The notes beneath the pieces are model-generated. The model did no database searches, had not been told where the DNA came from, and was given only the letters and a program-made list of their open reading frames with translations. The position numbers were made by a program, and so were the translations under genes. This document shows, in pieces, positions 45,667 through 62,362 of a DNA stretch of 64,000 nt (position 1 is the first letter of the stretch; every line of letters starts with the position of its first letter). Source of the stretch: Bacteroidota bacterium (GTDB taxonomy: Bacteria; Bacteroidota; Rhodothermia; JANXDC01); the NCBI GenBank assembly GCA_025998875.1, contig AP024675.1:1273549-1337548 (forward strand). The letters run 5' to 3'.

Positions 45667-46278
45667 ATGACGCGTCCGGAAGAGTTACACACAGCCATCG
45701 CGCTGCTGGAGGCTGAGCACTACCAGGAGGCGCTTCCGCTCTGGAAAGCGGCTCTGGAACGCGATCCGCATGATCCGGTCGCCCTGTGGGGGTGCGGGAT
45801 CTGTCTGGAGCAGCTGGGCCAACTCCAGGAAGCGGTCCGCGTCTACGAGGCCCTGCTCGGGTCTGAAGCGCTGGAGGCCCGGTTTCGGGTCGCTATCCTC
45901 AACAACCTGGGCCTGTGCTACTTCCGTCTGGGCCGCTATGAAGAGGCCCGCTCCTGTTTCGCCTCCGCTCTGCCGGAGGATCCGTCGGCCTGTTCGGGTC
46001 GCCATCTGGCCATGACGCTGATCGAACTGGGAGCCTATACCGAAGGGGTGGATCAACTGGTGCGCACGCTGCGCCACCATCCCCAGGATGTGCCGGCCCT
46101 GCTGCTGCTGGCCGGATATCTGGAGGAGGTGGGGGCTTTCGACCGGGCGGCTACCTACTACGAGTGGGCCCGGGACGTGATCAGGGCAAACAGTCCTGAG
46201 CATCCGGATCTGCGGTTTATCGAGGCGCGCATCGAAGGCCTGGCCATCCACAGGCAGAGCACAGGGGAGCGGACATGA
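45667..46278 (+). CDS. TPR-repeat protein
   Basis: Repeated Ala/Leu/Tyr-rich 34-residue helical pattern. Confidence 0.6.
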   Translation: MTRPEELHTAIALLEAEHYQEALPLWKAALERDPHDPVALWGCGICLEQLGQLQEAVRVYEALLGSEALEARFRVAILNNLGLCYFRLGRYEEARSCFASALPEDPSACSGRHLAMTLIELGAYTEGVDQLVRTLRHHPQDVPALLLLAGYLEEVGAFDRAATYYEWARDVIRANSPEHPDLRFIEARIEGLAIHRQSTGERT

Positions 46279-47648
46279 AGCCGCGCATCAGCCTGGCCAT
46301 GATTACGCGCAACGAAGAAAAAAACCTGCCCGAGGCGCTCCGTTCCGTCCAGGGCGTGGTCGATGAGGTGGTGATCGTGGATACAGGCTCAACGGATGGG
46401 ACGATCCGCATCGCGCGCGCCTGGGGTGCTCGGGTCCTTTCCGTACCCTGGGAGGAGGATTTCGCGCGGGCCCGAAACGCGGCGCTGCCCCACATCCGCG
46501 GCGACTGGTTGCTGTGGATGGATGCCGATGAGCGGCTGGTCCCCGAAAGCCGGCCGTTTTTTGATCTGTTGCCGGAGCAGGCAGATCCTCCGATCGGATT
46601 CCGGGTATACCTGCGCAACTGGACCGAGGACCGGCGCTCCTTTGATCTCTCCTGGGCGATGCGGCTGGTACGCCTCTTTCCGGGCCTTGCCTTCACGGGT
46701 CGCGTGCACGAACAGCTCTCCAGCGCCCTGGCCCGACACGGGGGTGTGGTGCTCGACAGTCCGGTAGTGCTCGATCACTTCGGCTACGGGCTTTCCGCAG
46801 AACAGATGCGGCTCAAGTTGGAGCGCAACTATCGGCTCCTGGCGCAGCAGATCAAAGAAGAGCCTCACAACGCCTATGCGCACCTGACCATGGGGCTCAA
46901 CCGCCTGAGCGCCGGAGATTTCGGGGCGGCTGTACGCCATTTTCGCCTGGCGCTTCGGCTTCGCCAGGGTCTGGATTCGATGCTCCTGCTAGCCGCGCAC
47001 AACGGACTGGCCCGGGCGTATCTGGAGCAGGGAGAACTGGAGCAGGCCTACCGGTGGGCACGCCGTTCCTTGCGTTTGGAGAAAAGCCAGGCCTGTCCCT
47101 ATTTGGTTCTGGGAGATATCTATCGGCGCCGGGGACAGCGCAAGCGGGCCTATGCGGTCCTGCAGAGCGCCCTGCAGTATGGTCCAGAGCGCTCCCGGGC
47201 TGCCTATGACATAAATCCCCATCGACCGGCGCTGTACGAGACGATCCTCGGGCTGGCCCTGGAGCTGGGCCGATACGAAGAGGCGCGCCTTTTTCTGGAG
47301 CGGCTGTGGGTGCTCAAGCCGGAGCGGGCGATCGCCGAGTGGCGCTATCGCATGGCCGTCGCATGCGGTGCGCCCGCACAGCAGGTGCTGGAGGCCTACG
47401 AAGCCCTGCTTGGCTTTCTAGAGAGGGAGGCAGAAGCCGATGCCCCCCTGCACCTGCTGTTAGCGGAAGGGCGGCTGGCAGAGGCCGCGGGGGGTTACGA
47501 AATGGCGCTATGCCGGTTTCCAAATGCTCCGCTCCTGCTGCGTCGTCTAGCCGGGGTTCGAGTCAAGCTGGGCGATCTGCGTGGGGCACATGCTTTGCTG
47601 AGCGAGGGTTTGCCGGTTGCCGGAGCAATCAAGGAGGTCCGTGCATGA
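46275..47648 (+). CDS. Family-2 glycosyltransferase with C-terminal TPR domain
   Basis: GT2 N-terminus SLAMITRNEEKNLPEAL...VVDEVVIVDTGSTDGT, DxD-like WMDADE; C-terminal TPR repeats; ATGA coupling to both neighbours. Confidence 0.75.
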   Translation: MKPRISLAMITRNEEKNLPEALRSVQGVVDEVVIVDTGSTDGTIRIARAWGARVLSVPWEEDFARARNAALPHIRGDWLLWMDADERLVPESRPFFDLLPEQADPPIGFRVYLRNWTEDRRSFDLSWAMRLVRLFPGLAFTGRVHEQLSSALARHGGVVLDSPVVLDHFGYGLSAEQMRLKLERNYRLLAQQIKEEPHNAYAHLTMGLNRLSAGDFGAAVRHFRLALRLRQGLDSMLLLAAHNGLARAYLEQGELEQAYRWARRSLRLEKSQACPYLVLGDIYRRRGQRKRAYAVLQSALQYGPERSRAAYDINPHRPALYETILGLALELGRYEEARLFLERLWVLKPERAIAEWRYRMAVACGAPAQQVLEAYEALLGFLEREAEADAPLHLLLAEGRLAEAAGGYEMALCRFPNAPLLLRRLAGVRVKLGDLRGAHALLSEGLPVAGAIKEVRA

Positions 47649-48130
47649 ACACGGCCGAAGTTTCCATCCCCTTTGCCAGCCGCGAAGCCTTTCTGGGCCT
47701 GGACCGGCGTCAGCAGGCCACCGAAGAGCTGGTGGAACTGGTGGCCTTTTCCGTCTCGGGCCAACCCCTGGCCGTTCCCATGGAGAACGTTCAGGAGGTG
47801 ATCTCCTGGCGCGAGGTCACGCGCGTGCCGCTGGCGCCGTCGTACTATCGGGGCGTGATCAACCTGCGCGGCACGATCGTGCCCGTGCTGGATACGGCCC
47901 TTCGGCTGGGTCTGCCGGGGGGTCGGGTGGAGCAGCTGGTCGTTCTGCAGACGAGCCGGGGGCTGGTGGCGTTGACCATAGACGAGACGCGGGATGTGTT
48001 GCGCGTGCCCCCCGAGGCGCTCGAGTACGATGTGGAAAGGGCAACCTATACGGATGGCCGTTTCTTTCAGGCTGTCTGCCGGTCAGGTGAGCACCTGTAC
48101 CTTGTCCTAAACGGGGAGGCGCTGCTGTAG
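47645..48130 (+). CDS. cheW: Chemotaxis coupling protein CheW
   Basis: 161-aa CheW-like domain (VAFSVSGQPLAVPMENVQEV); start ATG 47645 overlaps upstream stop. Confidence 0.8.
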   Translation: MNTAEVSIPFASREAFLGLDRRQQATEELVELVAFSVSGQPLAVPMENVQEVISWREVTRVPLAPSYYRGVINLRGTIVPVLDTALRLGLPGGRVEQLVVLQTSRGLVALTIDETRDVLRVPPEALEYDVERATYTDGRFFQAVCRSGEHLYLVLNGEALL

Positions 48131-49033
48131 ATGCCCGGCATGGAACCCGATATCACGGCACAGAGGGTGCGCTGGGAGGGGTTTTCTATACCTCCCCTGT
48201 CGGCCACGTTCGCCGATATGGTGCGCCTGATGAACCAGCCCGAGCTGATCGAGGTCCGGCGCGTGGTGGAGATCATCGGCCGCGATCCGGCTGTGACGGC
48301 CCGCATTTTACGCATCGTAAACTCCGCCTATTACGGGCTCCGGGCCAGAGTGGGTACGGTCGAGCACGCCGTGGTGCTTCTGGGGGCGGAAGCCACCGTG
48401 GGGTTTGTTATCGGCATGGGCATAATCAACATGCGGCGGCATTTCCATCCAACGATGCGCCATCTGGTTCTGCACCTCATTCGGCATCTGGTTGCCACAG
48501 GCGCCCTGGCCGGGCAGATCGCCCAGCTCGCCCACCTTGCCACCGCCCAGGGCAGGGGACTGGAGTTTACCGCCGGGCTCCTGCACGATCTGGGCAAGAT
48601 CGTGCTCCTGTACAACGTCCCGGACAGGTATCAAACCCTTTGCGGCGCCTCCCGACAGGAGGCCTGTGCGGAGGAGGAGAGCGCCTTCGGGCTCAATCAC
48701 GCCGAGCTGGGGGCGCTTCTGGCCGAGCAGTGGGCCTTTCCGGAAGCGCTCGTCGAGGCCATTCGCTGGCATCACTGCCCTGAAGAGGCCCCCCCAGCGT
48801 ATCGGCCTATCGCCCAGGTGGTCCACCTTGCCGATACGGCCGCCTACCGAATGGGACTGGGGTTTCATGCCGGAGAGGAGGCGATTGCGGACAGTGAGCT
48901 TGCCAAAAGGTGGGAAAAAGCCTGTGGCCCGAACGTGCCAGCCTTCGAGGAACTATTCCGGCATTTGGAATCTGGAAAGCCCCAGTTGCACCAGTTCGTC
49001 GATACCTTGCTCGGATCGGATAGGGAACCGTGA
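48131..49033 (+). CDS. HDOD-domain signalling protein
   Basis: HD-related output domain pattern (ILRIVNSAYYGL..., HDLGKIVL, HAELGALLAEQW). Confidence 0.7.
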   Translation: MPGMEPDITAQRVRWEGFSIPPLSATFADMVRLMNQPELIEVRRVVEIIGRDPAVTARILRIVNSAYYGLRARVGTVEHAVVLLGAEATVGFVIGMGIINMRRHFHPTMRHLVLHLIRHLVATGALAGQIAQLAHLATAQGRGLEFTAGLLHDLGKIVLLYNVPDRYQTLCGASRQEACAEEESAFGLNHAELGALLAEQWAFPEALVEAIRWHHCPEEAPPAYRPIAQVVHLADTAAYRMGLGFHAGEEAIADSELAKRWEKACGPNVPAFEELFRHLESGKPQLHQFVDTLLGSDREP

Positions 49034-49887
49034 GTATACTGCCGGAGCCGTATTTCACTGAACTCAGCCACCTGCTGCAGCAGGCCACGGGGATATACTT
49101 CGATGCAAGCAAAAAGTACTTCCTCGAGGCCCGTGTACAGCTGCGCATGCGCACGCTGGGTATTGCCTCCCTGGAGGAATACGTGCGCTATCTGCGGCAG
49201 GGGGCGCATCGTGCCCAGGAACTCAAGCAGCTCCAGGAGCTCGTGGCCGTACATGAGACCTACTTTTTCCGCCACCCCCAGCAGATGGACCTGCTCCGCC
49301 AGGAGGTCTTTCCCCGCTGGGGAGAGCGGATACGGAGGCCGGGCGCCCGGGTGCGGATCTGGTCCAGTGGGTGTTCGAGCGGGGAGGAGCCGTATTCGAT
49401 CGCGATCCTTCTTGTGGAGCATTTCGGCTACGAGCTTGTGCGGGACCGTTTTGAGCTCCTGGCCACCGATCTGAGCGAGGCGATTCTGCACAAGGCTCGT
49501 CGGGCTATTTACGGTCCGGCTTCCTTTCGGGGGCATATGCCCGAGGCGTATCTGGGCCGTTACTTCCGGACCCACAGACAGGGCCGGGCGCTGTGCGAGG
49601 AAATCCGATCCCTTGTGCGCTTCCAGACGCTCAATCTGAAAGATTCCCTATGGCCCATCGGCGCCGGATGGGATCTGATTCTGTGCCGGAACGTGCTGAT
49701 CTACTTCGACGCCCCAACCAAGCAGCACATACTTCGGCGGTTTTTCGAATTGCTGTTGCCGGGTGGGTATCTGGCTCTTGGAGAGTCGGAATCCCTTTAT
49801 GGCTACACGGACGACTTTCGGGTTATCTCCGGGAAAGGAGCCATGCTGTACCAGAGACCGCAGGCCACGGGAGGGGAGCAGAGATGA
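49030..49887 (+). CDS. cheR: Chemotaxis protein methyltransferase CheR
   Basis: SAM-dependent CheR motifs (RIWSSGCSSGEEPYSIAILL, CRNVLIYFD); GTG start overlapping upstream stop. Confidence 0.85.
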   Translation: MSILPEPYFTELSHLLQQATGIYFDASKKYFLEARVQLRMRTLGIASLEEYVRYLRQGAHRAQELKQLQELVAVHETYFFRHPQQMDLLRQEVFPRWGERIRRPGARVRIWSSGCSSGEEPYSIAILLVEHFGYELVRDRFELLATDLSEAILHKARRAIYGPASFRGHMPEAYLGRYFRTHRQGRALCEEIRSLVRFQTLNLKDSLWPIGAGWDLILCRNVLIYFDAPTKQHILRRFFELLLPGGYLALGESESLYGYTDDFRVISGKGAMLYQRPQATGGEQR

Positions 49888-51614
49888 GCGAGTTTAGAGA
49901 CATTCTCGATGAGTTCATCCAGGAGAGCCGGGAACTGCTGGAGCAGGCCGAGGGGGCCCTCATCGAGTTGGAGCGCAGGCCTCAGGAAGGGGCCCTGCTC
50001 GATGCGATCTTCCGGGCCTTTCATACGATCAAGGGCACGGCCTCCTTTGTGGGTCTGGAGCGTACGACCCAGCTCACGCACCGGGCCGAAGATCTGCTCA
50101 ACCGGATGCGCAAGGGGGAACTGCCCGTCACGCCGGCTGTGCTGGACGTGCTCTTTTCCGTAATCGATCGGACGCGCCGGCTTATCGAGTCCGTACAGAG
50201 CCGAGAGGCCGAAGAGGAGTCCATCGATGATGTCCTGCTGATGATCGAGGTGATCCTGGATGTCGAGGTGGGTCCGGGCCGGCCGATATCGCACCACGCG
50301 GAAGCCGTTGAGGGGGCGCAGAGGGAGTCGGACGCTTCGTCACCGATTCAGCCGTCCCAGGAGGGACGCCCCGCTTCCCGCTCCGGGCCCGCTGGGGCAG
50401 AGCCGCGAATGGGGCTCTCGGAGCAGACCATCCGGGTGGATGTGGAGCGATTGGACCATCTCATGAACCTGGTCGGGGAGCTTGTCCTGAGCCGCAATCA
50501 GCTTCTGGAGCTGGCGCGCGTGTTACGGGCCGAGTTGCAGGGAAACGACTCCGCAGAGCGGGTATGGGATATGCTGGCCCAGCTGGATTGGATCACCAAC
50601 GAGATCCAGCGCGCCGTCACCCGTACGCGTATGGTGCCTGTGGGCCGGGTTTTCGCCCGTTTCGAGCGCATGGTGCGCGACCTGGCCCGGGAGCTCGAGA
50701 AGTCCATTCGTTTTGAAGCCTTCGGGGCAGATACGGAGGTTGATAAATCCGTGGCCGAGGTGCTCGTCGATCCCCTGGTGCACCTGATCCGCAATGCGGT
50801 CGATCACGGCATCGAATCTCCCTCTGAGCGCCTGCAGCGGGGCAAACCTGCCGAGGGCAAGGTGCAGCTACGCGCCTATCAGGAGGGAAACACGATCGTG
50901 CTCGAAGTAAGCGATGATGGCCGGGGCATCGATCCGAATTTTGTGCGGCGCCGCGCCGTCGAAAAGGGGCTCCTTTCCCGGGAAGCGGCCGAGGGGCTTT
51001 CGGACCTCGAGGCCCTGCAGTTGATCTTTCTGCCCGGCTTTTCCACGCGCACGGAGGCCAGCAACCTCTCCGGCCGGGGGGTGGGCATGGATGTGGTGCG
51101 GACGAATCTGGCTCGCATAGGGGGCTCGGTGAGCGTGCAGACCGAGCCCGGTCAGGGCACCACCTTTACACTGCGCCTGCCGCTTACGCTGGCTATCATC
51201 CCCGGTCTGACCGTGGGCGTATACGAGGAGTGCTTCATCATCCCGCTGTCGACGGTGCTGGAGATCGTTCGCCTCTCCGATTATCGGGTCGAGGTCAGCG
51301 AGGGACGACGGGTGATCGTGCTTCGGGATCAGATCTTGCCCCTGTACTGGCTCCACGAACTCCTGCAGGTGCCCGCGGGCGCGCCGCCGGCAGGGGAGTA
51401 CGTGGTGGTGCTCGCCGTCGGGGAGCAGCGTTTCGGGCTCGTGGTACACACCCTGGTGGGACAGGAAGAGGTGGTGGTCAAGTCCATCGGTTCGGTCTTT
51501 GGCCAGCTTCCCGGTATTGCGGGCGGCACCATTCGGGGCAATGGGCAGGTGGGCATTATCCTGGATATTCCGGAGCTGTATCGCTACGCGCAGACCCTGG
51601 CATGGGCGGCATGA
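49884..51614 (+). CDS. cheA: Chemotaxis histidine kinase CheA
   Basis: P1 His box FRAFHTIKGTASFVG; HATPase N/G boxes; C-terminal CheW-like domain; start ATG 49884. Confidence 0.9.
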   Translation: MSEFRDILDEFIQESRELLEQAEGALIELERRPQEGALLDAIFRAFHTIKGTASFVGLERTTQLTHRAEDLLNRMRKGELPVTPAVLDVLFSVIDRTRRLIESVQSREAEEESIDDVLLMIEVILDVEVGPGRPISHHAEAVEGAQRESDASSPIQPSQEGRPASRSGPAGAEPRMGLSEQTIRVDVERLDHLMNLVGELVLSRNQLLELARVLRAELQGNDSAERVWDMLAQLDWITNEIQRAVTRTRMVPVGRVFARFERMVRDLARELEKSIRFEAFGADTEVDKSVAEVLVDPLVHLIRNAVDHGIESPSERLQRGKPAEGKVQLRAYQEGNTIVLEVSDDGRGIDPNFVRRRAVEKGLLSREAAEGLSDLEALQLIFLPGFSTRTEASNLSGRGVGMDVVRTNLARIGGSVSVQTEPGQGTTFTLRLPLTLAIIPGLTVGVYEECFIIPLSTVLEIVRLSDYRVEVSEGRRVIVLRDQILPLYWLHELLQVPAGAPPAGEYVVVLAVGEQRFGLVVHTLVGQEEVVVKSIGSVFGQLPGIAGGTIRGNGQVGIILDIPELYRYAQTLAWAA

Positions 51615-52687
51615 ACATGGAGCGGCGCATACGGGTACTCGTCATAGACGATTCGGCTTTTATCCGGCACGCCATCCGGCGCGTGCTCAGCGAGGCCCCC
51701 ACGATCGAGGTGTTGGATATGGCGGCCAACGGTCGGGAGGGGCTGGAGAAGATCCGCGCGCTGCAGCCGGATCTGGTGACGCTCGATCTGGAAATGCCCG
51801 AGATGGACGGGTTTGCTGTCCTGCGCGCACTCCAGCAGGAGGGGCTGCAGGTACCCGTGATCGTGGTCAGCTCCCTGACGCAGGAAGGCGCCGAGGCCAC
51901 CTTGAGGGCGCTGGAGCTGGGTGCGGTGGATTTTGTGCCCAAAACCCATGGGCCGGGCGCCACCGACATTGCCCGGCTGCGCCGAGAGTTGCTGCTAAAG
52001 ATCGAACAGGTGGCATCCGGATACCGGGCTCCCCTCGCCGCTGCCCCTCCTCAAAGGACTCGGTGGGGTGTGCCGGCTCGGAGCGAGGTTCCGGAGCTGG
52101 TGCTCATCGGCGCTTCCACCGGGGGACCTATGGCCCTGCAGCGGATCTTCTCGGCCTGGCGCACCCCGCTCCCGGTTCCGGTGGTTGTCGTGCAGCATAT
52201 GCCCCCATTTTTTACCGCAAGCCTGGCCAGAAGGCTCGATAGCGTATCGGCGCTGCATGTCAAAGAAGCCGAAGATGGGGAACGACTCCAGCCCGGATGG
52301 GCCTACGTGGGGCCCGGCGGACGTCAGATGCGTCTGCTACGTCGCAAAGGAGAGCTCGAGATAGAACTTCACGATGAGCCCTACCCGTCACCCTTTCGGC
52401 CCTCGGTGAATATGGTGGCCAGTTCCGTAGCGGCCATCTGCGGCCCGAGGGCCATCGGGGTGATTCTCACGGGTATGGGAGACGATGGAGCTCTGGGCCT
52501 GAAGGCCATGCGCGATCGAGGGGCCTTCGTTATCGGACAGGATGCGGCCACCTCGGTCATCTATGGCATGCCCAGAGCCGCCTTTGAGCTCGGAGCGGTC
52601 AACGTCCAGTTGCCCCTGGATGAAATTCCGGAGGCTGTAGAGCGATTACTTGCCTGTGCAAGCCCTATCGCCGTGGCGAAAGCATAA
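51611..52687 (+). CDS. cheB: Chemotaxis response regulator protein-glutamate methylesterase CheB
   Basis: Receiver domain (VLVIDDSAFIR...VTLDLEMPEMDG) plus methylesterase domain (GASTGGP, GMGDDG). Confidence 0.9.
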   Translation: MNMERRIRVLVIDDSAFIRHAIRRVLSEAPTIEVLDMAANGREGLEKIRALQPDLVTLDLEMPEMDGFAVLRALQQEGLQVPVIVVSSLTQEGAEATLRALELGAVDFVPKTHGPGATDIARLRRELLLKIEQVASGYRAPLAAAPPQRTRWGVPARSEVPELVLIGASTGGPMALQRIFSAWRTPLPVPVVVVQHMPPFFTASLARRLDSVSALHVKEAEDGERLQPGWAYVGPGGRQMRLLRRKGELEIELHDEPYPSPFRPSVNMVASSVAAICGPRAIGVILTGMGDDGALGLKAMRDRGAFVIGQDAATSVIYGMPRAAFELGAVNVQLPLDEIPEAVERLLACASPIAVAKA

Positions 52688-52704: not shown

Positions 52705-53091
52705 ATGGAGCTCACCATTCTGGTCGTGGACGATTCCCCCACCATGCGGCGGATCATCTGCAACACGCTGGACCGGCTCGGCTACAAGAATCATGTGGAG
52801 GCCGAAAACGGACAGCAGGCCTGGGAACTCATTCAGAAAGGGGGGATCAACTTCCTGCTTACAGACTGGAACATGCCCGAGATGAACGGCCTGGAGCTGG
52901 TAACAACCATACGGCGTTCGCCGGCGCATAAAGATCTGCCCATCATTATGATCACCACCAAGGGCATGACCGAAGAGGTGCTGGAAGCCGTCAAGGCCGG
53001 GGTGAATAACTATATCGTCAAACCGTTCACCCCCGAGGTGCTGGAAGAGAAGATCAAAGCCGTTCTGGCCAAGATGGCCGTAGCTAGATAA
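52705..53091 (+). CDS. cheY: Chemotaxis response regulator CheY
   Basis: 128-aa single receiver domain (DDSPTMRR, TDWNMPEMNG, KPF). Confidence 0.9.
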   Translation: MELTILVVDDSPTMRRIICNTLDRLGYKNHVEAENGQQAWELIQKGGINFLLTDWNMPEMNGLELVTTIRRSPAHKDLPIIMITTKGMTEEVLEAVKAGVNNYIVKPFTPEVLEEKIKAVLAKMAVAR

Positions 53092-53108
53092 CGGGAGGGG
53101 AAGAGGCC

Positions 53109-53744
53109 ATGGAGAAGAACGGACAAAACGTGCAACAGCAGGTACTGGAGCGCATCGAGCAACTCAAGCATTTGTTCTTGCTGGGGCAGGAGATCCTGCC
53201 GTTTCTGGAGCAGTTGTTCATCTTTCTGAAAGAAATCGCCCCCTTGATGAGCGAGCTCTCGCGATCCGTTTTTGAAGGCTCGTTGCGCATGCCGGAGGCC
53301 ACTAACGAGATCGAGTCCATACACGCCAAAACCTCAGACGCCACGTTCCGTATTCTGGCCCGTACCGAACAGCTGCTCGCCGACCTGGAGACCCTCCGTA
53401 TGGAGCTGGCCTCCGGAGAAAACACCGGACAGTGGGCCGAAAAGGTCGACCGGGCCCACGAGGCCGTGATGGATATCATGACCTCCCTGCAGTTTCACGA
53501 CATCGTGACGCAGAAGCTGGCCGCCGTACGGGATGTGCTCACGCGCGTGCAGAATCAGCTCATCGAGCTTTTTGAGAGCTTCCATCGGCTGGAAATCGAC
53601 TCCAACCTCAAGCGCAACCTTATGGCCGCCATGGGCATTACCGAGGAGGAACTGCAGCGCCTTGTGGCACTGCGCAATCACCAACCCGCGGCGAAACCGG
53701 AGGTGAGCATTTCGCAGGCCGATATCGATGCGCTCTTTGCCTGA
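53109..53744 (+). CDS. CheZ-like chemotaxis phosphatase (remote homolog)
   Basis: Helical 211-aa protein directly after cheY; LQFHDIVTQKL matches CheZ active-site segment FQDLTGQVI (D-x3-Q). Confidence 0.5.
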   Translation: MEKNGQNVQQQVLERIEQLKHLFLLGQEILPFLEQLFIFLKEIAPLMSELSRSVFEGSLRMPEATNEIESIHAKTSDATFRILARTEQLLADLETLRMELASGENTGQWAEKVDRAHEAVMDIMTSLQFHDIVTQKLAAVRDVLTRVQNQLIELFESFHRLEIDSNLKRNLMAAMGITEEELQRLVALRNHQPAAKPEVSISQADIDALFA

Positions 53745-53820
53745 GCGTTGCGCTGGCCCGCCGGAGGGGTTAAATTGCCCTCCACAGACGAGAGCGGGAC
53801 GGTGGAGGGTCAAGGCAGGT

Positions 53821-55293
53821 ATGGCTACGGGTTCCCGAAGGGTTCTCATTGTTGAGGATGAGCCCTTGCTCAATACGTATCTCAAAAAACTGCTCACCCG
53901 GCACGCTTTCGAGGTGGACACCTTCATCGACCCCGAACAGGCCCTGGAGGCCTTCAGCAGGCAACCGTATGATCTGGTGATCACAGATTACAAGATGCCC
54001 AATCTGACCGGTGAGGATGTGCTTCGTCGGGTCAAGGAAATGAAACCGGATGTGGGCGTTATCGTGATCACCGCATACGGGACGATTCAGAACGCGGTTC
54101 GCTGTATCCAGTTGGGGGCTTTCGATTACATCACCAAGCCGTTTCCTCCGGATGCGCTCATCGAACGCATACAGGCCTTCTTTGCCCAGCGGGAATCTGC
54201 CCCGCTGGAAGGGGAGGGTAGGGAGTCGAGACGTCGGCGATCGAGCAGAAGCGAATACGGGGCGGTTTTCATCGGCGAGCATCCCAAGATCGTGCAGCTG
54301 CGTCAGCTGGCCCGTCAGCTGGCGCAGAACGATGCCCCCGTGCTCATTCAGGGGGAAAACGGTACGGGCAAGGAGGTACTGGCGCGTTTCATCCACGCCC
54401 ACAGCCGACGTGCCCGGGGCCCCTACGTGGCCATCAACTGCGCCAATTTGCCGCGGGAGCTGGTCGAAAGTACCCTGTTCGGGCATAAAAAAGGGGCTTT
54501 TACCGGCGCCATCGAGGATGCCTCCGGAGCTTTCGAGCAGGCCCGAGGGGGTACGTTGCTGCTTGATGAAATCACGGAGATCGAGCTGCCTATCCAGGCC
54601 AAGCTGCTGCGCGTGCTCCAGGAGCGGGAGTTTACCCGCGTGGGGAGCCATGAGCCCATTGTGGCCGATGTGCGCGTGATCGCCACCACGAACCGGGACA
54701 TTCACGAGGCCATCGCGCGGGGGCTGTTCCGTGAGGACCTGTATCACCGCCTGAGCGTCTTCCCGATCGTGATCCCTCCCCTTCGGGAACGGGCTTCCGA
54801 CATCCCGGTTCTGGCGCGCCACTTCGTGCAGAAGTATACCGCTCTCTATAACCTGCCCGAAAAGGAGCTCGCTTCCGATCTGGTGGAGGCGCTGCTGGCC
54901 TACGACTGGCCGGGAAACGTGAGACAGCTGGAAAACCTCATCCACCGGGGTGTGTTGCTCTCCGGAGATCGGAGGCGGATCGAGGTCGAGGACGTCTTTT
55001 CCGAGTATTTCTCCGACCGCGTACTGTTCCGCGCGGTGCGGCGTGGTTCGGAGGAAAAAACCCGCACCCTCGAGCCCGTAGCCGGGGATGCTTCTGATGA
55101 GCCTTCGGCCTCGGCGCTTGTTTCGGAGCCGGATGTGCCGCTAAAACCCCTCGAGGAGGTGGAGCGTTTGCTGATTCTGAAGGCGCTGGCGGAGGCCAAC
55201 CAGAATCAGCAGCGCGCCGCCGCCATGCTCGGCATCAGCGCGCGCACGATCCGCAACAAACTCCGCCAGTACCGACAGCAGGGTTTACTCTAA
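53821..55293 (+). CDS. Sigma-54-dependent response regulator (FleR/FlgR-like)
   Basis: N-terminal receiver; AAA+ Walker A GENGTGKE; GAFTGA sigma-54 contact motif; C-terminal HTH. Confidence 0.85.
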   Translation: MATGSRRVLIVEDEPLLNTYLKKLLTRHAFEVDTFIDPEQALEAFSRQPYDLVITDYKMPNLTGEDVLRRVKEMKPDVGVIVITAYGTIQNAVRCIQLGAFDYITKPFPPDALIERIQAFFAQRESAPLEGEGRESRRRRSSRSEYGAVFIGEHPKIVQLRQLARQLAQNDAPVLIQGENGTGKEVLARFIHAHSRRARGPYVAINCANLPRELVESTLFGHKKGAFTGAIEDASGAFEQARGGTLLLDEITEIELPIQAKLLRVLQEREFTRVGSHEPIVADVRVIATTNRDIHEAIARGLFREDLYHRLSVFPIVIPPLRERASDIPVLARHFVQKYTALYNLPEKELASDLVEALLAYDWPGNVRQLENLIHRGVLLSGDRRRIEVEDVFSEYFSDRVLFRAVRRGSEEKTRTLEPVAGDASDEPSASALVSEPDVPLKPLEEVERLLILKALAEANQNQQRAAAMLGISARTIRNKLRQYRQQGLL

Positions 55294-55773
55294 CGGTTCC
55301 CGACGCAGCTGCCGCAGGATGCGTTCGGCCAGCGCCCGTCGTACCTCGATCCGATCATAATAGCCGCCCTGGAGCCGCTCTACTATGAGCTCCGAATCAG
55401 CGGGGCCCGAGGTCTCCAACTCACGGCTCTTCTCCGAACTCCGCACCAGCTCCTCGGCCAGCTGACGGATAAAATCGTCCCGGTTATAGAAGCCTTCTTG
55501 CAGGCGGGCCTGGATTGTCCTCAGATGGGCCTGTCGCTCCCGATCGAGGGCGTACAGCGCCTGACGGGCGAACTGGACTGTGCGGGCTTCGGGCTCCTGC
55601 CAGGCGCGGATCTCCAGGCGTACGGCCTCCGGGGAAGCGCCTGTCTCCGGGGGCTCATCGGTGGGCCTGGTTGCGGAGGGTTCCGCGGTGCGGACTTTGC
55701 CGGGCGAGCCTCCCCGAATCCCGGTGGACGGGGAGGGTTGTGCGGCGTCGGGAAGTAGCTTGCGAATATCCAT
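55285..55773 (-). CDS. Hypothetical protein, disordered N-terminus with duplicated C-terminal helix motif (possible FlgM-like anti-sigma-28)
   Basis: Pro/Ser/Thr-rich N-terminus then two copies of a G-aromatic-Y...D...I..LAE..L segment loosely resembling FlgM C-terminus; last gene of filament operon. Confidence 0.3.
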   Translation of the reverse strand: MDIRKLLPDAAQPSPSTGIRGGSPGKVRTAEPSATRPTDEPPETGASPEAVRLEIRAWQEPEARTVQFARQALYALDRERQAHLRTIQARLQEGFYNRDDFIRQLAEELVRSSEKSRELETSGPADSELIVERLQGGYYDRIEVRRALAERILRQLRREPLE

Positions 55774-58030: not shown

Positions 58031-58339
58031 CTATCGCTTGAGCACGTGGTTTTTCCACTGCTGGCGTAGTTCGGCCAGCACTTCACGTACGGCCTCGAAA
58101 TGGCCATTGTGCGTCTGATGCAGACAGTACATGTAGAGCTCGAAGAACGTACGGGCCACCTCCTCGTAGTCGAAATTCAGGCTGTTGATCAGCTCCCGGA
58201 GTACGAGGCGCAGCCGGTCACGGTCGCGGCGCGCACAGGCCTGTAGCCCGAGGTCATAGAGGGTAAGGACTAATTCTTCCGGGGAGGCAGACAGAATTTC
58301 CTGCTGTTTGTACTGTCGGGCGTACTGCTGGGCGAGCAT
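58031..58339 (-). CDS. fliS: Flagellar export chaperone FliS
   Basis: 102-aa helical bundle protein with FliS-like core (LTLYDLGLQACARRD...FELYMYC). Confidence 0.75.
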   Translation of the reverse strand: MLAQQYARQYKQQEILSASPEELVLTLYDLGLQACARRDRDRLRLVLRELINSLNFDYEEVARTFFELYMYCLHQTHNGHFEAVREVLAELRQQWKNHVLKR

Positions 58340-58386
58340 GGCGCTGTTTCCCTTGCTTGCTGGATCCGGACATCAAGTCCTGTACC

Positions 58387-58421
58387 GGAAAAGGAGGGGA
58401 GGGGTTTCCGCCCTCCCCTCC
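58387..58421 (-). terminator. Rho-independent terminator downstream of fliC
   Basis: On minus strand: stem GGAGGGGAGGG, loop CGGAAA, stem CCCTCCCCTCC, then TTTTCC; lies 10 nt after fliC stop. Confidence 0.7.
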
Positions 58422-58430
58422 AGGTTGCTA

Positions 58431-59309
58431 TTAGCGGAACAGGGAGAGCACGGCCTGGGGATTGGCGTTGGCCTGCGCCAGGGCAACGGTGGCCGTCTGC
58501 TGCAGGATCTGCAACTTGGCCACGCGCAGCTGCTCCTTGGCAAAATCGGCATCAAAGACCCGGCTGCGAGCCCCCTCCGTGTTCGTGATCTGCGCGGAGA
58601 GCATGTTTTCCTTGACCGTGAGCCGCGTCTGGAAGGCGCCCAGGTCCCGGATGGCCGCGCTTACCGTGGAAATTGCCTGGTCAATAGAGGCCAGCGCCGC
58701 CGAGAAGCTGGCCGCCGACGACGATCCGGTGAGCGCACCCGATCCGGTGACCACCCCGCTGAGCAGACCCACGGACTGGAAGGTCGTGGTGCTGCCGCTG
58801 GAGGTGATGGAGAAGGTCACGGTGTCGGAGTTGTCCGGACCCACGTGGAACTGGAGGGTGCTCGAGGAAGAGTTGTAGTCCTTCAGCAGGGCGCGTCCGT
58901 TGTACTTGGTCTGCTCGACGATCTGGTCGATCTCCCGACCCAGGGCCTGGATGTCGGCCACGATGGCGGTGCGCTCCTCTTGCGCCATGGAATCATTGGC
59001 CCCGCGGGTGACCTTCTCCTTGATCGTCTGCAGGATGTCCATGATCGACTGCAGACCGCCCTCGGCCACCGAGAGCATGTTCTTGGCGTCCCCGATGTTG
59101 TCCAGGGCCGCGCTCAGCCCCCGAATGCGGGCCTCGAGCTTCTTGCCCAGGGCATAGCCGGCCGAATCGTCCTCGGCCGAGTTGATCCGATAGCCCGTGG
59201 CCAGACGCGTCTGCCGCACGCCCAGCTCCCGGTTGATGCGAAAGAGCGAATTGAGCGCGCCCAGGGACTGAGCATCGGAATTGATGCGCGTCAGATCTCC
59301 GAACGGCAT
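58431..59309 (-). CDS. fliC: Flagellin
   Basis: Conserved flagellin N-terminal (LRINSAEDDSAGYA) and C-terminal (QILQQTATVALAQANANPQAVLSLFR) helices; short Ser/Thr-rich central region. Confidence 0.9.
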   Translation of the reverse strand: MPFGDLTRINSDAQSLGALNSLFRINRELGVRQTRLATGYRINSAEDDSAGYALGKKLEARIRGLSAALDNIGDAKNMLSVAEGGLQSIMDILQTIKEKVTRGANDSMAQEERTAIVADIQALGREIDQIVEQTKYNGRALLKDYNSSSSTLQFHVGPDNSDTVTFSITSSGSTTTFQSVGLLSGVVTGSGALTGSSSAASFSAALASIDQAISTVSAAIRDLGAFQTRLTVKENMLSAQITNTEGARSRVFDADFAKEQLRVAKLQILQQTATVALAQANANPQAVLSLFR

Positions 59310-59379
59310 GGCAGTACTCCTTTTTACTTGGGGTTTGGGGTGGTTGGCCAGGTTCTCTGGCTTTTCTTCTCCGAGGGTA

Positions 59380-59407
59380 GTTATCGGTACGATGAGAAAA
59401 AACTTAA
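59380..59407 (-). promoter_or_regulatory. Candidate sigma-28 (FliA) class III promoter for fliC
   Basis: Minus strand reads TTTAAG-N14-ACCGATAA versus consensus TAAA-N15-GCCGATAA; -10 element ~70 nt upstream of fliC start. Confidence 0.5.
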
Positions 59408-59575
59408 ATTGTCCCTGGGGGGGTATGTCTGTACCGAACCAGATGGCGGGCCTGCAGGGCCGATATTCTGATCAGTCCAATGGGGAGCGGGAAGACGGCC
59501 AGGCAGGACAGGGGATGGGATTGACGACCGCCGTTCTGGTCCCGACAGAGCCGGGGTAATTTTTTCCGCATCTCG

Positions 59576-62362
59576 ATGGGGAATGAATTTGGCCTGCTCG
59601 GCTGTGTATGTCGAGGAAAGGAAGGCGTTATGTCGGCTGATCGGCGGCTGTACCGGCGTTATCCTGCCCGGGGACCCTGGCCAGAGGTGAACGTGTCCGT
59701 GATCGTAGTGAACTACAACCGAGCCTCTTGCCTGCAGGATTGCTTCGATAGCCTGTTTCATCAAACATATCGAAATTTTGAAATCATTCTTGTAGATGAC
59801 GGAAGTTCGGATAATTCCAGAGATATTTTATTGAATATTTTTGAAAAAAATAGGAAAGACAAAAAAATTCCTTTTAGAATGATAATTCAACAAAATAGTG
59901 GACATCCTTCTTATCCCATAAATAGAGCTATGAGGCTTGCGAGAGGAAAGTATATACTTTTTCTTTCGTCAGACGACATGATACATCATAAGTGTATAGA
60001 AATATTTGTAAAAATTTTAGATGAAATGCAAGAATATGGATATGTTTATTGTGATAGAGTGGATTTCAAAGATAAAAACATTTTAAAAATAGTAAAATCA
60101 AATTATTTTGATGCTGATAAGTTAATTTTTGAAAATTTTGTTTCTTATTGTTCTATGTTTAGAAAAGAAATATTTAAAAAAGTTAAAAAAATTAAAAAAG
60201 TTGGCTTTGAAGATTGGAATTTATGGATTGAATTTCTAAAGTTTGGTTATCATGGATTTTATGTTCCTGAGCCTCTGTTTCTGTATCGAATAAACGAAGA
60301 TGGATTGTTTTCGAAAAATATAGAAGAAAAAGAAAAGAATATTGCCCAGCTGATCCGGGAAAATACAGTGTTATACCACCCGGAGGTGCTCAACTGGGCG
60401 TTCAAGGTGCTGGGCGAAAGGCAGGAACCTCCGCTCTTCAGCATTATCGTGCCTACCCGCAACAGGCCGGAGTGGCTTCGGGAGGCCCTTCGGAGCATTC
60501 AGCAGCAGACCGTGGCCAATTTTGAGGTGCTCGTCGTCAACGATGGGGGGCAGGATGTCTCCCACGTGGTCGCATCCCTCCAGGACAGTCGATTTCGATA
60601 CATCGCGCTTCCGGAGCGGCGGGGACTGGCTGCCGCCCGCAACCGGGGCCTTGAGGAGGCGCGCGGCCGGTATGTGGCTTTCCTGGATGATGATGATCGC
60701 TTCCTGCCCCATCATCTGCAAACGGCCTGGATCGCCCTCTCCGAGGGGGCGCGCGTGGTCTACACGGACGCGCTGCGCGCCGTCTGGGCACCCCTGCCCC
60801 GGGGAGGGGAAGCGATTGTCGATCTCTGTCTGCCGTATCGGCTTGACTTCCATCCCGATCGGCTTCTACTGGGCAACATCGCGCCCGTAAACTGCTTCGT
60901 GCTGGAGCGCGAACTCATTGAGCGATACGGCCCCTTTGATGAGTCCTTGCCCGTGCTGGAGGACTGGGAGTTCTGGTTGCGCCTGTCGCGGCGGGTGCGC
61001 TTTCGGCGCATCCCTGAGCCCACGGTGTGGGTCAACTGGCGGCCCCACGGCCAGAACCTGACCCACAGCCGGGAGCAGGATTTCGCCCGGGCCCGTGCCC
61101 GCATTCAGGCCCGATACCGTCGGGCCCTTGTCCGGCTTGCGCCCGAGAGACGGCAGGAGATCCTCCACGAGTTCCTTCGCATCTGGTCTCGGGATGGTGT
61201 GCTTCCTGAACCGCCCCTGCTCTCCATTGTGATCCTGGCACACAACCAATTTCCTCATACCCGAGCCTGTCTGCAGTCCGTGCTCACCCATACTCCGCCC
61301 TGGTCGTTCGAATGCATCGTCGTCGACAACGGCTCCACGGACGAAACGCCCCGCCTGCTTCCCCGGTGGGCAGAGGAGCATCCACAGATTCGATACATCC
61401 GCCTGGAGGAGAACCGGGGGTTTCCGGCCGGCAATAACGTGGGGCTGGCCGCCGCCCAGGGACGCTATGTGATCCTGCTCAACAACGATACCGTCGTTAC
61501 CCCCGGATGGATCGAGCGCCTGCTGCTGCCCGCCGTAACCGATCCCTCTGTGGGGCTCGTGGGGCCCGTTTCCAATCGCGTCTCCGGCAGGCAACAGCTC
61601 CCGGCCGTCGCCTACGACACCGAGACCCTCAAGGGGTTGGAGGCTTTCGCCTTGAAACGGGCGCGCTGGTATGCGGGCCGAAAGCTTGAAGTCCGACGTC
61701 TGGTGGGCTTTTGTCTGCTCATCCGACGCGAGTTGCTCGAGCGCATCGGTGGGCTGGATGAGCGCTTCGGTATGGGCAACTTCGAGGACGACGATTACTG
61801 CCTGCGCGCCGCTCTGGCCGGTTTCCGGGCCGTCGTGGCGCTGGATTGTTTCGTGCATCATACCGGAAGCCAGACTTTCCGCGCCCTATCCATAGATTAC
61901 GGCCGATTGCTGCTGGAGAACTGGGAGAAGTTCAAACATAAATGGCATCTGCCCGCCGATCTTCCCTATGGGCATCCGTATCCGTTTCCCGAGCGGCCCT
62001 TCGATCCGTCCCGGGATTACATCCCGCTACCCCGATGGGAGCGGCCGCTGGAGGACTTCGTGGCCGGTGTGCAACAAGCCCTTCTGCAGGGCGACGCGCT
62101 CCGAGCCGAGCATCTGGCCTACGAGGTCACTCGAGTCCATCCCCGAAACCCCTACGCCTGGTTGTTGCGCGCCTTGGTGGCCCGGCTGGACCGTAGATGG
62201 GATGAGGCTCTTGAGGCCGTGCGATATTCCCTTCGGCTCCAGGAGACCCCGGAAGCGCTCCAGGAACTGCGCCGTCTGCTCGAGGGCACTGGCGTGGGCA
62301 AGCAAGTGCCGCCGTATAGGGAAGAGCCCTGCCCTGAGCAGGCGGCCCTCAAGCACCTCTGA
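59576..62362 (+). CDS. Multidomain glycosyltransferase: three tandem GT2 domains plus C-terminal TPR-like region (928 aa)
   Basis: Three GT2 cores: (1) VSVIVVNYNR...ILVDDGSSDNS...SSDD; (2) FSIIVPTRNR...VVNDGGQD...DDDD; (3) LSIVILAHNQ...VVDNGSTDET...NND; start may be ATG 59630. Confidence 0.8.
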   Translation: MGNEFGLLGCVCRGKEGVMSADRRLYRRYPARGPWPEVNVSVIVVNYNRASCLQDCFDSLFHQTYRNFEIILVDDGSSDNSRDILLNIFEKNRKDKKIPFRMIIQQNSGHPSYPINRAMRLARGKYILFLSSDDMIHHKCIEIFVKILDEMQEYGYVYCDRVDFKDKNILKIVKSNYFDADKLIFENFVSYCSMFRKEIFKKVKKIKKVGFEDWNLWIEFLKFGYHGFYVPEPLFLYRINEDGLFSKNIEEKEKNIAQLIRENTVLYHPEVLNWAFKVLGERQEPPLFSIIVPTRNRPEWLREALRSIQQQTVANFEVLVVNDGGQDVSHVVASLQDSRFRYIALPERRGLAAARNRGLEEARGRYVAFLDDDDRFLPHHLQTAWIALSEGARVVYTDALRAVWAPLPRGGEAIVDLCLPYRLDFHPDRLLLGNIAPVNCFVLERELIERYGPFDESLPVLEDWEFWLRLSRRVRFRRIPEPTVWVNWRPHGQNLTHSREQDFARARARIQARYRRALVRLAPERRQEILHEFLRIWSRDGVLPEPPLLSIVILAHNQFPHTRACLQSVLTHTPPWSFECIVVDNGSTDETPRLLPRWAEEHPQIRYIRLEENRGFPAGNNVGLAAAQGRYVILLNNDTVVTPGWIERLLLPAVTDPSVGLVGPVSNRVSGRQQLPAVAYDTETLKGLEAFALKRARWYAGRKLEVRRLVGFCLLIRRELLERIGGLDERFGMGNFEDDDYCLRAALAGFRAVVALDCFVHHTGSQTFRALSIDYGRLLLENWEKFKHKWHLPADLPYGHPYPFPERPFDPSRDYIPLPRWERPLEDFVAGVQQALLQGDALRAEHLAYEVTRVHPRNPYAWLLRALVARLDRRWDEALEAVRYSLRLQETPEALQELRRLLEGTGVGKQVPPYREEPCPEQAALKHL
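59760..60350. other. AT-rich compositional island (roughly 30% GC by eye) inside the glycosyltransferase ORF, in frame
   Basis: Visibly Lys/Asn/Ile/Phe-rich AT-rich codons across ~590 bp flanked on both sides by high-GC coding sequence of the same reading frame. Confidence 0.85.

Follow-up and report, generated by a model that had tools for sequence, protein, structure and literature searches.

The mechanism of Escherichia coli CheZ, which serves here as the basis for analogy, is established from the 1KMI complex. The same job, dephosphorylation of CheY-P, is done by CheC, CheX and FliY with an analogous use of Asp/Asn or Glu/Asn pairs, but on an alpha/beta fold unrelated to that of CheZ. In CheZ an AXXFQ motif stands beside DXXXQ, and in E. 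coli the tip of the CheZ hairpin (F97/W98) binds the short form of CheA (PMC7750401). As for distribution, a passage in PMC12887009, citing Lertsethtakarn & Ottemann 2010, places CheZ also in Aquificia, Deferribacteres, Nitrospiria and Sphingobacteriia; a cheZ is listed in the flagellar cluster of the Ignavibacterium album genome (PMC3362086); and a transcriptome paper on Roseithermus, a member of the Rhodothermales, lists a CheZ with a locus tag (AWN76_017500) between those of CheA (017495) and a CheY (017505) (PMC7409140). Here we analyse a gene at 53109..53744 on the plus strand of a 64,000-nucleotide stretch of a Bacteroidota bacterium (contig AP024675.1 of assembly GCA_025998875.1, positions 1,273,549 to 1,337,548); this whole stretch is called the window, and all coordinates refer to it. 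The gene directly follows cheY, and we consider it very probable that its 211-residue product is a divergent CheZ-family phosphatase, co-transcribed with cheY, that shortens the lifetime of CheY-P and so resets the flagellar switch. A first-pass annotation of the locus had started from the premise that CheZ was long thought to be restricted to Proteobacteria. That premise is out of date, as reports of non-proteobacterial CheZ go back to 2010, and because of the reports cited above the gene does not overturn the current view of CheZ.

The best family match of the 211-residue protein is Pfam CheZ (PF04344; E 2.3e-6, 28.1 bits) over residues 108–210, a span that takes in the active-site helix and the C-terminal peptide, and the Pfam scan gave no match to the CheC, CheX or FliY families. 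HMMER, run exhaustively over 1.8 billion representative proteins, returned 309 relatives at E ≤1e-3. When a profile of 29 homologues was run against all PDB sequences, the top match was E. coli CheZ itself (1KMI_Z, E 4.5e-5), with FqDItsQ of the profile lying over FQDLTGQ, and lPtA over IPDA in the first helix. Aligned by hhalign with E. coli CheZ alone, the family scores E 2.3e-5 at ~18% identity over the aligned columns; aligned with 11 CheZ proteins, most of them named CheZ by their sources and including those of Azospirillum brasilense and E. coli, it reaches 99.3% probability and E 1.1e-20 over 162 columns. Pfam CheZ is matched by 25 of the 29 homologues on their own, and its cut-off is exceeded by three of the five homologues that were re-scanned (42.7, 37.8 and 31.0 bits). 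These comparisons support the protein as a genuine, if divergent, CheZ-family member. The first-pass annotation had called it a CheZ-like phosphatase, and this placement in the family is borne out by the profile matches, by the residues conserved and by the surrounding genes; the activity itself would follow by analogy.

The segment LQFHDIVTQKL (residues 127–137; 53487..53519, plus strand) had been singled out earlier as the counterpart of the CheZ catalytic segment, and both hmmsearch and hhalign agree, aligning it to FQDLTGQ of E. coli so that D131 (codon 53499..53501) and Q135 (codon 53511..53513) fall on D143 and Q147. These two residues are the only invariant columns in an alignment of 116 sequences, a mix of the relatives' clade and named CheZ proteins; in the alignment of 29 sequences the invariant positions are F39, P45, P62, Q128, D131, I132 and Q135. 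The pattern Q-x-[QHEN]-D-[ILVMF]-x-x-Q occurs in 143 of the 151 proteins listed, and the remaining eight, mostly short, are probably fragments for the most part. A bare D-x3-Q is no evidence: from composition alone 0.67 occurrences are expected in the 211-residue protein, which has exactly one; the extended motif, in register with the family profile, goes beyond chance. The counterpart of the AXXFQ-DXXXQ pairing reads ALQFQ-DITSQ in the family consensus and SLQFH-DIVTQ in the protein itself.

A second match, absent from the first-pass annotation, lies at the C-terminus. The peptide ISQADIDALFA (residues 201–211; 53709..53741, plus strand), which presumably forms the CheY-binding helix beyond a flexible linker, parallels the C-terminal end of E. 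coli CheZ, ASQDQVDDLLDSLGF, which is the CheY-tethering peptide. It is nearly identical to ISQADIDALFD, the consensus of the 11-protein CheZ alignment, and hhalign sets it against SQ-DIDALF of the named CheZ proteins. Positions Q203, I206, D207 and F210 are near-invariant in the alignments of both 29 and 116 sequences. This match is no less diagnostic than that of the catalytic segment.

AlphaFold2 was run twice, on alignments of 29 and of 116 sequences; the mean predicted local distance difference test (pLDDT) scores were 70.9 and 71.9, and the models had the same plan: a long helix (~6–101), a tight turn, a return helix (107–160) and two short helices, then a low-confidence linker (~191–202) and a terminal helix (203–210). 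This predicted succession, with a hairpin and a linker ahead of the CheY-binding helix, is CheZ-like. The first-pass annotation had described a helical protein, which fits a predicted model that is ~87% helical, and had held that its claim would fall if no CheZ-like fold were predicted; the topology of the models resembles that of CheZ. The N-terminal arm (residues 27–64; 53187..53300, plus strand) carries near-invariant P31, F39, P45, P62 and A64 in the alignments of 29 and 116 sequences. Its features are specific to this clade, and for most representative homologues it is the best-matching stretch. Most of the best 150 of the 309 representatives are 250–470 residues long and have at least two matching stretches; these longer proteins share the N-terminal arm as well as QVQDITSQ and, at the C-terminus, SQxDIDxLF, and a variable insertion lies between.

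In the open reading frame (ORF) listing of the window, the frame at 53109..53744 (plus strand) starts with ATG and encodes 211 residues, and the identical protein on four other public contigs has been called with the same boundaries. The earlier description of a 211-residue ORF following cheY is thus exact; its 18-bp gap is not, the spacer read directly from the sequence being 17 nt (53092..53108, plus strand). The spacer has a purine-rich run, GGGAGGGGAAGAGG, and its GGGAGGGG is ribosome-binding-like. A promoter/terminator scan found no terminator-like site between cheY and the cheZ-like gene, the scan signal being at background level and so uninformative. The ORF at 52705..53091 (plus strand), whose product is the presumed substrate, encodes a canonical CheY: it matches Pfam Response_reg (E 2.6e-31) and, with 127.4 bits and E 3.5e-37, the NCBIfam CheY equivalog, whose curated cut-off of 189 bits it does not reach, and 47% of its residues are identical to those of E. 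coli CheY in an alignment of 125 residues (E 3e-44). Read from the alignment with E. coli CheY, the acid pocket D9/D10 and the phosphorylation site D54 are kept, as are T84, Y103 and K106.

This adjacency extends to related genomes. A locus scan limited to one genome per species returned 80 loci, which by record title belong to Balneolales and other Bacteroidota, Kryptonia, Ignavibacteria, Calditrichota, Marinimicrobia/Fidelibacterota and Latescibacterota, together with one Lentisphaeria and one Chloroflexota metagenome-assembled genome (MAG). In 72 of the 80 loci the match has a same-strand cheY homologue no more than ~100 nt upstream; a limit of 220 nt raises the number to 75, and only two loci lack such a homologue. 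Many loci have two cheY genes ahead of cheZ. In Balneolales cheB and cheR lie on the opposite strand, and in Kryptonia cheA is found downstream. Since the other che genes move around while cheY stays, the cheY-cheZ pair is the conserved unit. The closest relative of the protein, and the sole close one, has 77% identity and comes from another Bacteroidota MAG. We offer tentatively, as a possibility we would not yet favour, that these proteins form a large coherent CheZ clade spanning Bacteroidota (Rhodothermales, Balneolales, Kryptonia and Ignavibacteria), Calditrichota, Marinimicrobia and Latescibacterota, with fixed cheY-cheZ synteny and an N-terminal module of its own (P31, F39, P45, P62) that might be a new device for localisation or partner binding. 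If this is true and the clade was vertically inherited, CheZ would be an ancient chemotaxis component of the superphylum and no proteobacterial invention spread by transfer. Two homologues, P0015 (RMG27755.1) and P0204, are labelled as archaeal MAGs (Methanobacteriota and Jordarchaeaceae) and stand on ~5-kb contigs; they are probably mis-binned bacterial contigs.

Within a flagellar cluster, the cheZ-like gene is the last of an operon in which cheR, cheA, cheB and cheY are tightly packed. It also closes a longer plus-strand run of genes whose ends overlap or nearly abut and which holds, ahead of cheY, the following genes: a cheW-domain ORF (47306..48130), a gene for an HDOD protein (48131..49033, Pfam E 2.2e-48), the methyltransferase gene cheR (49030..49887; Pfam CheR E 1.6e-53, CheR_N E 6.7e-14), which is the first of the tightly packed che genes and whose start overlaps the HDOD-gene stop by 4 nt, the histidine kinase gene cheA (49887..51614) and cheB (51614..52687), for a receiver domain with a methylesterase (Pfam CheB_methylest E 1.5e-61, Response_reg E 1e-23). 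CheA, 576 residues in the public call, has Pfam Hpt, dimerisation, HATPase and CheW domains and no Pfam match to the CheY-binding P2 domain. A sigma-54 response regulator, an activator with a receiver domain, is encoded 77 nt downstream of the cheZ-like gene (53821..55293, plus strand). Upstream of the che run are flgG, flgA, flgH, flgI, flgN, flgK and flgL, and downstream, on the minus strand, are also fliT-like, flaG and fliD genes.

Some further features of these surroundings may be recorded. The HDOD gene is lodged in the che operon between cheW and cheR, and in many Marinimicrobia loci HDOD genes are also found just upstream of cheY-cheZ. The cheW ORF as listed overlaps a frame at 46275..47648 (plus strand) by ~340 nt, so that the true cheW start is probably further downstream. 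That frame is one of two glycosyltransferase-family-2 genes, the other at 59576..62362 (plus strand), which stand on both sides of the flagellar and chemotaxis cluster; one is fused to TPR repeats, and the other encodes 928 residues with three family-2 stretches. They may point to flagellin glycosylation. Two ORFs gave no Pfam match at E ≤1e-3: one of 162 residues beside the fliT-like gene (55285..55773, minus strand), and one of 387 residues between fliD and the large glycosyltransferase (58308..59471, plus strand).

By analogy with the E. coli enzyme, two subunits would pair their helical hairpins (~6–101 and 107–160) to form a four-helix bundle. CheY-P would be tethered by the C-terminal helix ISQADIDALFA on its flexible linker; Gln135 would enter the CheY active site and position the attacking water; and Asp131 would contact the conserved CheY lysine (K106). 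The analysis shows that the protein belongs to the family by sequence, that the catalytic pair and the tethering peptide are conserved, that the predicted topology is CheZ-like and that adjacency to cheY is kept; dimerisation, mechanism, activity and substrate are inferred.

Several points weigh against the CheZ reading. The protein's own 28.1 bits fall below the curated Pfam cut-off of 30.7, and with the NCBIfam CheZ equivalogs NF008368 and NF041271 it stays far short of the cut-offs (12.4 bits where 257 are required, and 13.8 where 350 are). Searched as a single sequence against PDB sequences, it found only a chance capsid match (E 1.9); fold searches gave nothing at E ≤0.001, and 1KMI was not among the matches listed. 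The AXXFQ motif has Ser and His in place of the usual Ala and Gln. The hairpin is ~25 residues shorter than that of E. coli CheZ, with the tip region absent (a gap in the 1KMI_Z alignment), and the literature searched contained no biochemical assay of this protein or of any clade member. A comparison with CheZ profiles, which the first-pass annotation had proposed as a check, divides: the single protein stays under the Pfam cut-off, and the family profile puts 1KMI_Z first in the PDB. Because the NCBIfam scores are far below their cut-offs and the hairpin tip is absent, we regard the protein as a CheZ-family member and no equivalog of enteric CheZ; with its shorter hairpin it is also without the apical segment that makes the CheA-short contact (PMC7750401). 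The fold-search lists consist of generic helical hairpins, chemoreceptor cytoplasmic domains and other coiled coils being the best matches, and as CheZ is not separable from these the lists speak neither for the CheZ reading nor against it. A non-catalytic coiled-coil protein, a chemoreceptor-like or scaffolding hairpin whose resemblance to CheZ is coiled-coil bias, would account for such matches, and it draws further support from the family profile's match to a soluble chemoreceptor of T. maritima in the PDB (E 3e-4), from a sub-threshold Pfam MCPsignal match in one homologue and from the JGI naming of one homologue as a methyl-accepting chemotaxis protein. Yet bias would not single out the two catalytic residues, Asp and Gln, for invariance across 116 sequences, preserve a non-coiled C-terminal SQxDIDxLF peptide or give E 1e-20 in register against named CheZ proteins, and the chemoreceptor-like matches are confined to the N-terminal arm. 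We judge this explanation highly improbable. The matches of the N-terminal arm also led us to consider a chemoreceptor fragment, a candidate rejected on catalytic and C-terminal features that are CheZ-specific and invariant.

The GC-rich DNA of this region contains many overlapping spurious ORFs, and two of them run antisense across the cheZ-like locus (53084..53479 and 53334..53984, both minus strand). These two are without support and unremarkable, because GC-rich DNA is expected to yield such frames, and the frame at 53109..53744 might itself be a chance opening and no gene. That prospect is negligible, being effectively refuted by the homologue set, with its 77%-identical member and hundreds of distant ones that keep the conserved motifs; public gene calls also agree, and the spacing fits an operon. 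A broader question is which receivers a CheZ-type phosphatase would serve. Receiver domains flank the gene, with CheB upstream and the sigma-54 activator (53821..55293) downstream; two cheY genes precede cheZ in many related loci; and according to Lertsethtakarn and Ottemann, writing in 2010, H. pylori CheZ reportedly acts also on CheAY and weakly on CheV2. An active enzyme here could have its main or additional targets among CheB, the sigma-54 regulator and second CheY paralogues elsewhere. We think this unlikely, as the neighbour conserved across phyla is a single-domain cheY, whereas the positions of cheB and the sigma-54 regulator vary, and the C-terminal peptide matches the CheY-binding one of E. 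coli. A divergent CheZ acting on the product of the adjoining cheY is the reading we prefer.

The gene at 53109..53744 is an ordinary, under-annotated one. The identical protein is recorded as "hypothetical" in public records, from a hot-spring Bacteroidota MAG, and the names of its relatives vary among hypothetical, CheZ, "DUF3418 domain-containing protein" and "methyl-accepting chemotaxis protein"; several clade members are already named CheZ in JGI and UniRef. Three homologues from Caldithrix abyssi and Calditrichota LG25 (P0216, P0218, P0220) are named "DUF3418 domain-containing protein" by NCBI. One of them, P0216, scores 28.0 bits against PF11898 (cut-off 25) over the hairpin and 31.0 bits against PF04344 CheZ (cut-off 30.7). 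For these homologues the DUF3418 name is probably wrong. DUF3418, the HrpA C-terminal domain, was rejected for the family as a coiled-coil artefact: it has no match in the 211-residue protein, and the matches in homologues overlap the CheZ hairpin. The main use of the identification is in annotation: with a CheZ recognised, the chemotaxis pathway of a hot-spring Bacteroidota genome is complete, and a fast signal reset of the CheZ type is predicted for it. With its shorter hairpin and distinctive N-terminal arm, the clade could also supply a thermostable minimal CheZ for structural work, and could help to ask how CheZ localises without the CheA-short contact.

Among described systems, H. pylori CheZ is the precedent for a highly divergent CheZ, and it is likened to the present protein by description only. 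Lertsethtakarn and Ottemann are said to have reported in 2010 that it is too divergent for simple searches, with a phosphatase activity that depends on active-site residues and on the C-terminal region. This protein, CheZ(HP) (HP0170), is termed a "remote CheZ orthologue" in passages of PMC7750401 and PMC9321776. In Campylobacterota, cheZ adjoins trhP and not cheY, and CheZ localises via ChePep (PMC9321776, PMC7750401). A nearer likeness is found in Alphaproteobacteria: the protein phosphatase CheZ of Azospirillum brasilense (P0250) is directly matched by the family profile (E 1.5e-12), and alphaproteobacterial CheZ proteins share the AxxFQ-DITxQ segment and a near-identical C-terminal peptide (consensus ISQADIDALFD), although they are longer (~240–325 residues) and have another N-terminal region. 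Those of this group, such as that of Azorhizobium, have no CheA-short binding tip, as in the 211-residue protein; Azorhizobium cheZ is an orphan gene, whereas the gene described here follows cheY (PMC7750401).

E. coli CheZ (1KMI; PF04344) differs from our protein in its sequence, with ~18% identity, in a tip segment of ~25 residues that only E. coli has, and in lacking the clade-specific near-invariant prolines and aromatics of the family's N-terminal arm. The two are alike in length (~211–214 residues), in the catalytic F-x-D-x3-Q, which is in register with D131/Q135 at D143/Q147, in a stretch with P-x-A and T-x-x-A-x-x-x-L on the first helix of the hairpin, and in the C-terminal S-Q-x-x-[IV]-D-x-L-[LF] peptide, and the plan of hairpin, linker and terminal helix is predicted to be the same. 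Their genes are alike in setting too: apart from the cheA present in this operon, the order is the cheR-cheB-cheY-cheZ of E. coli K-12, with cheZ directly after cheY.
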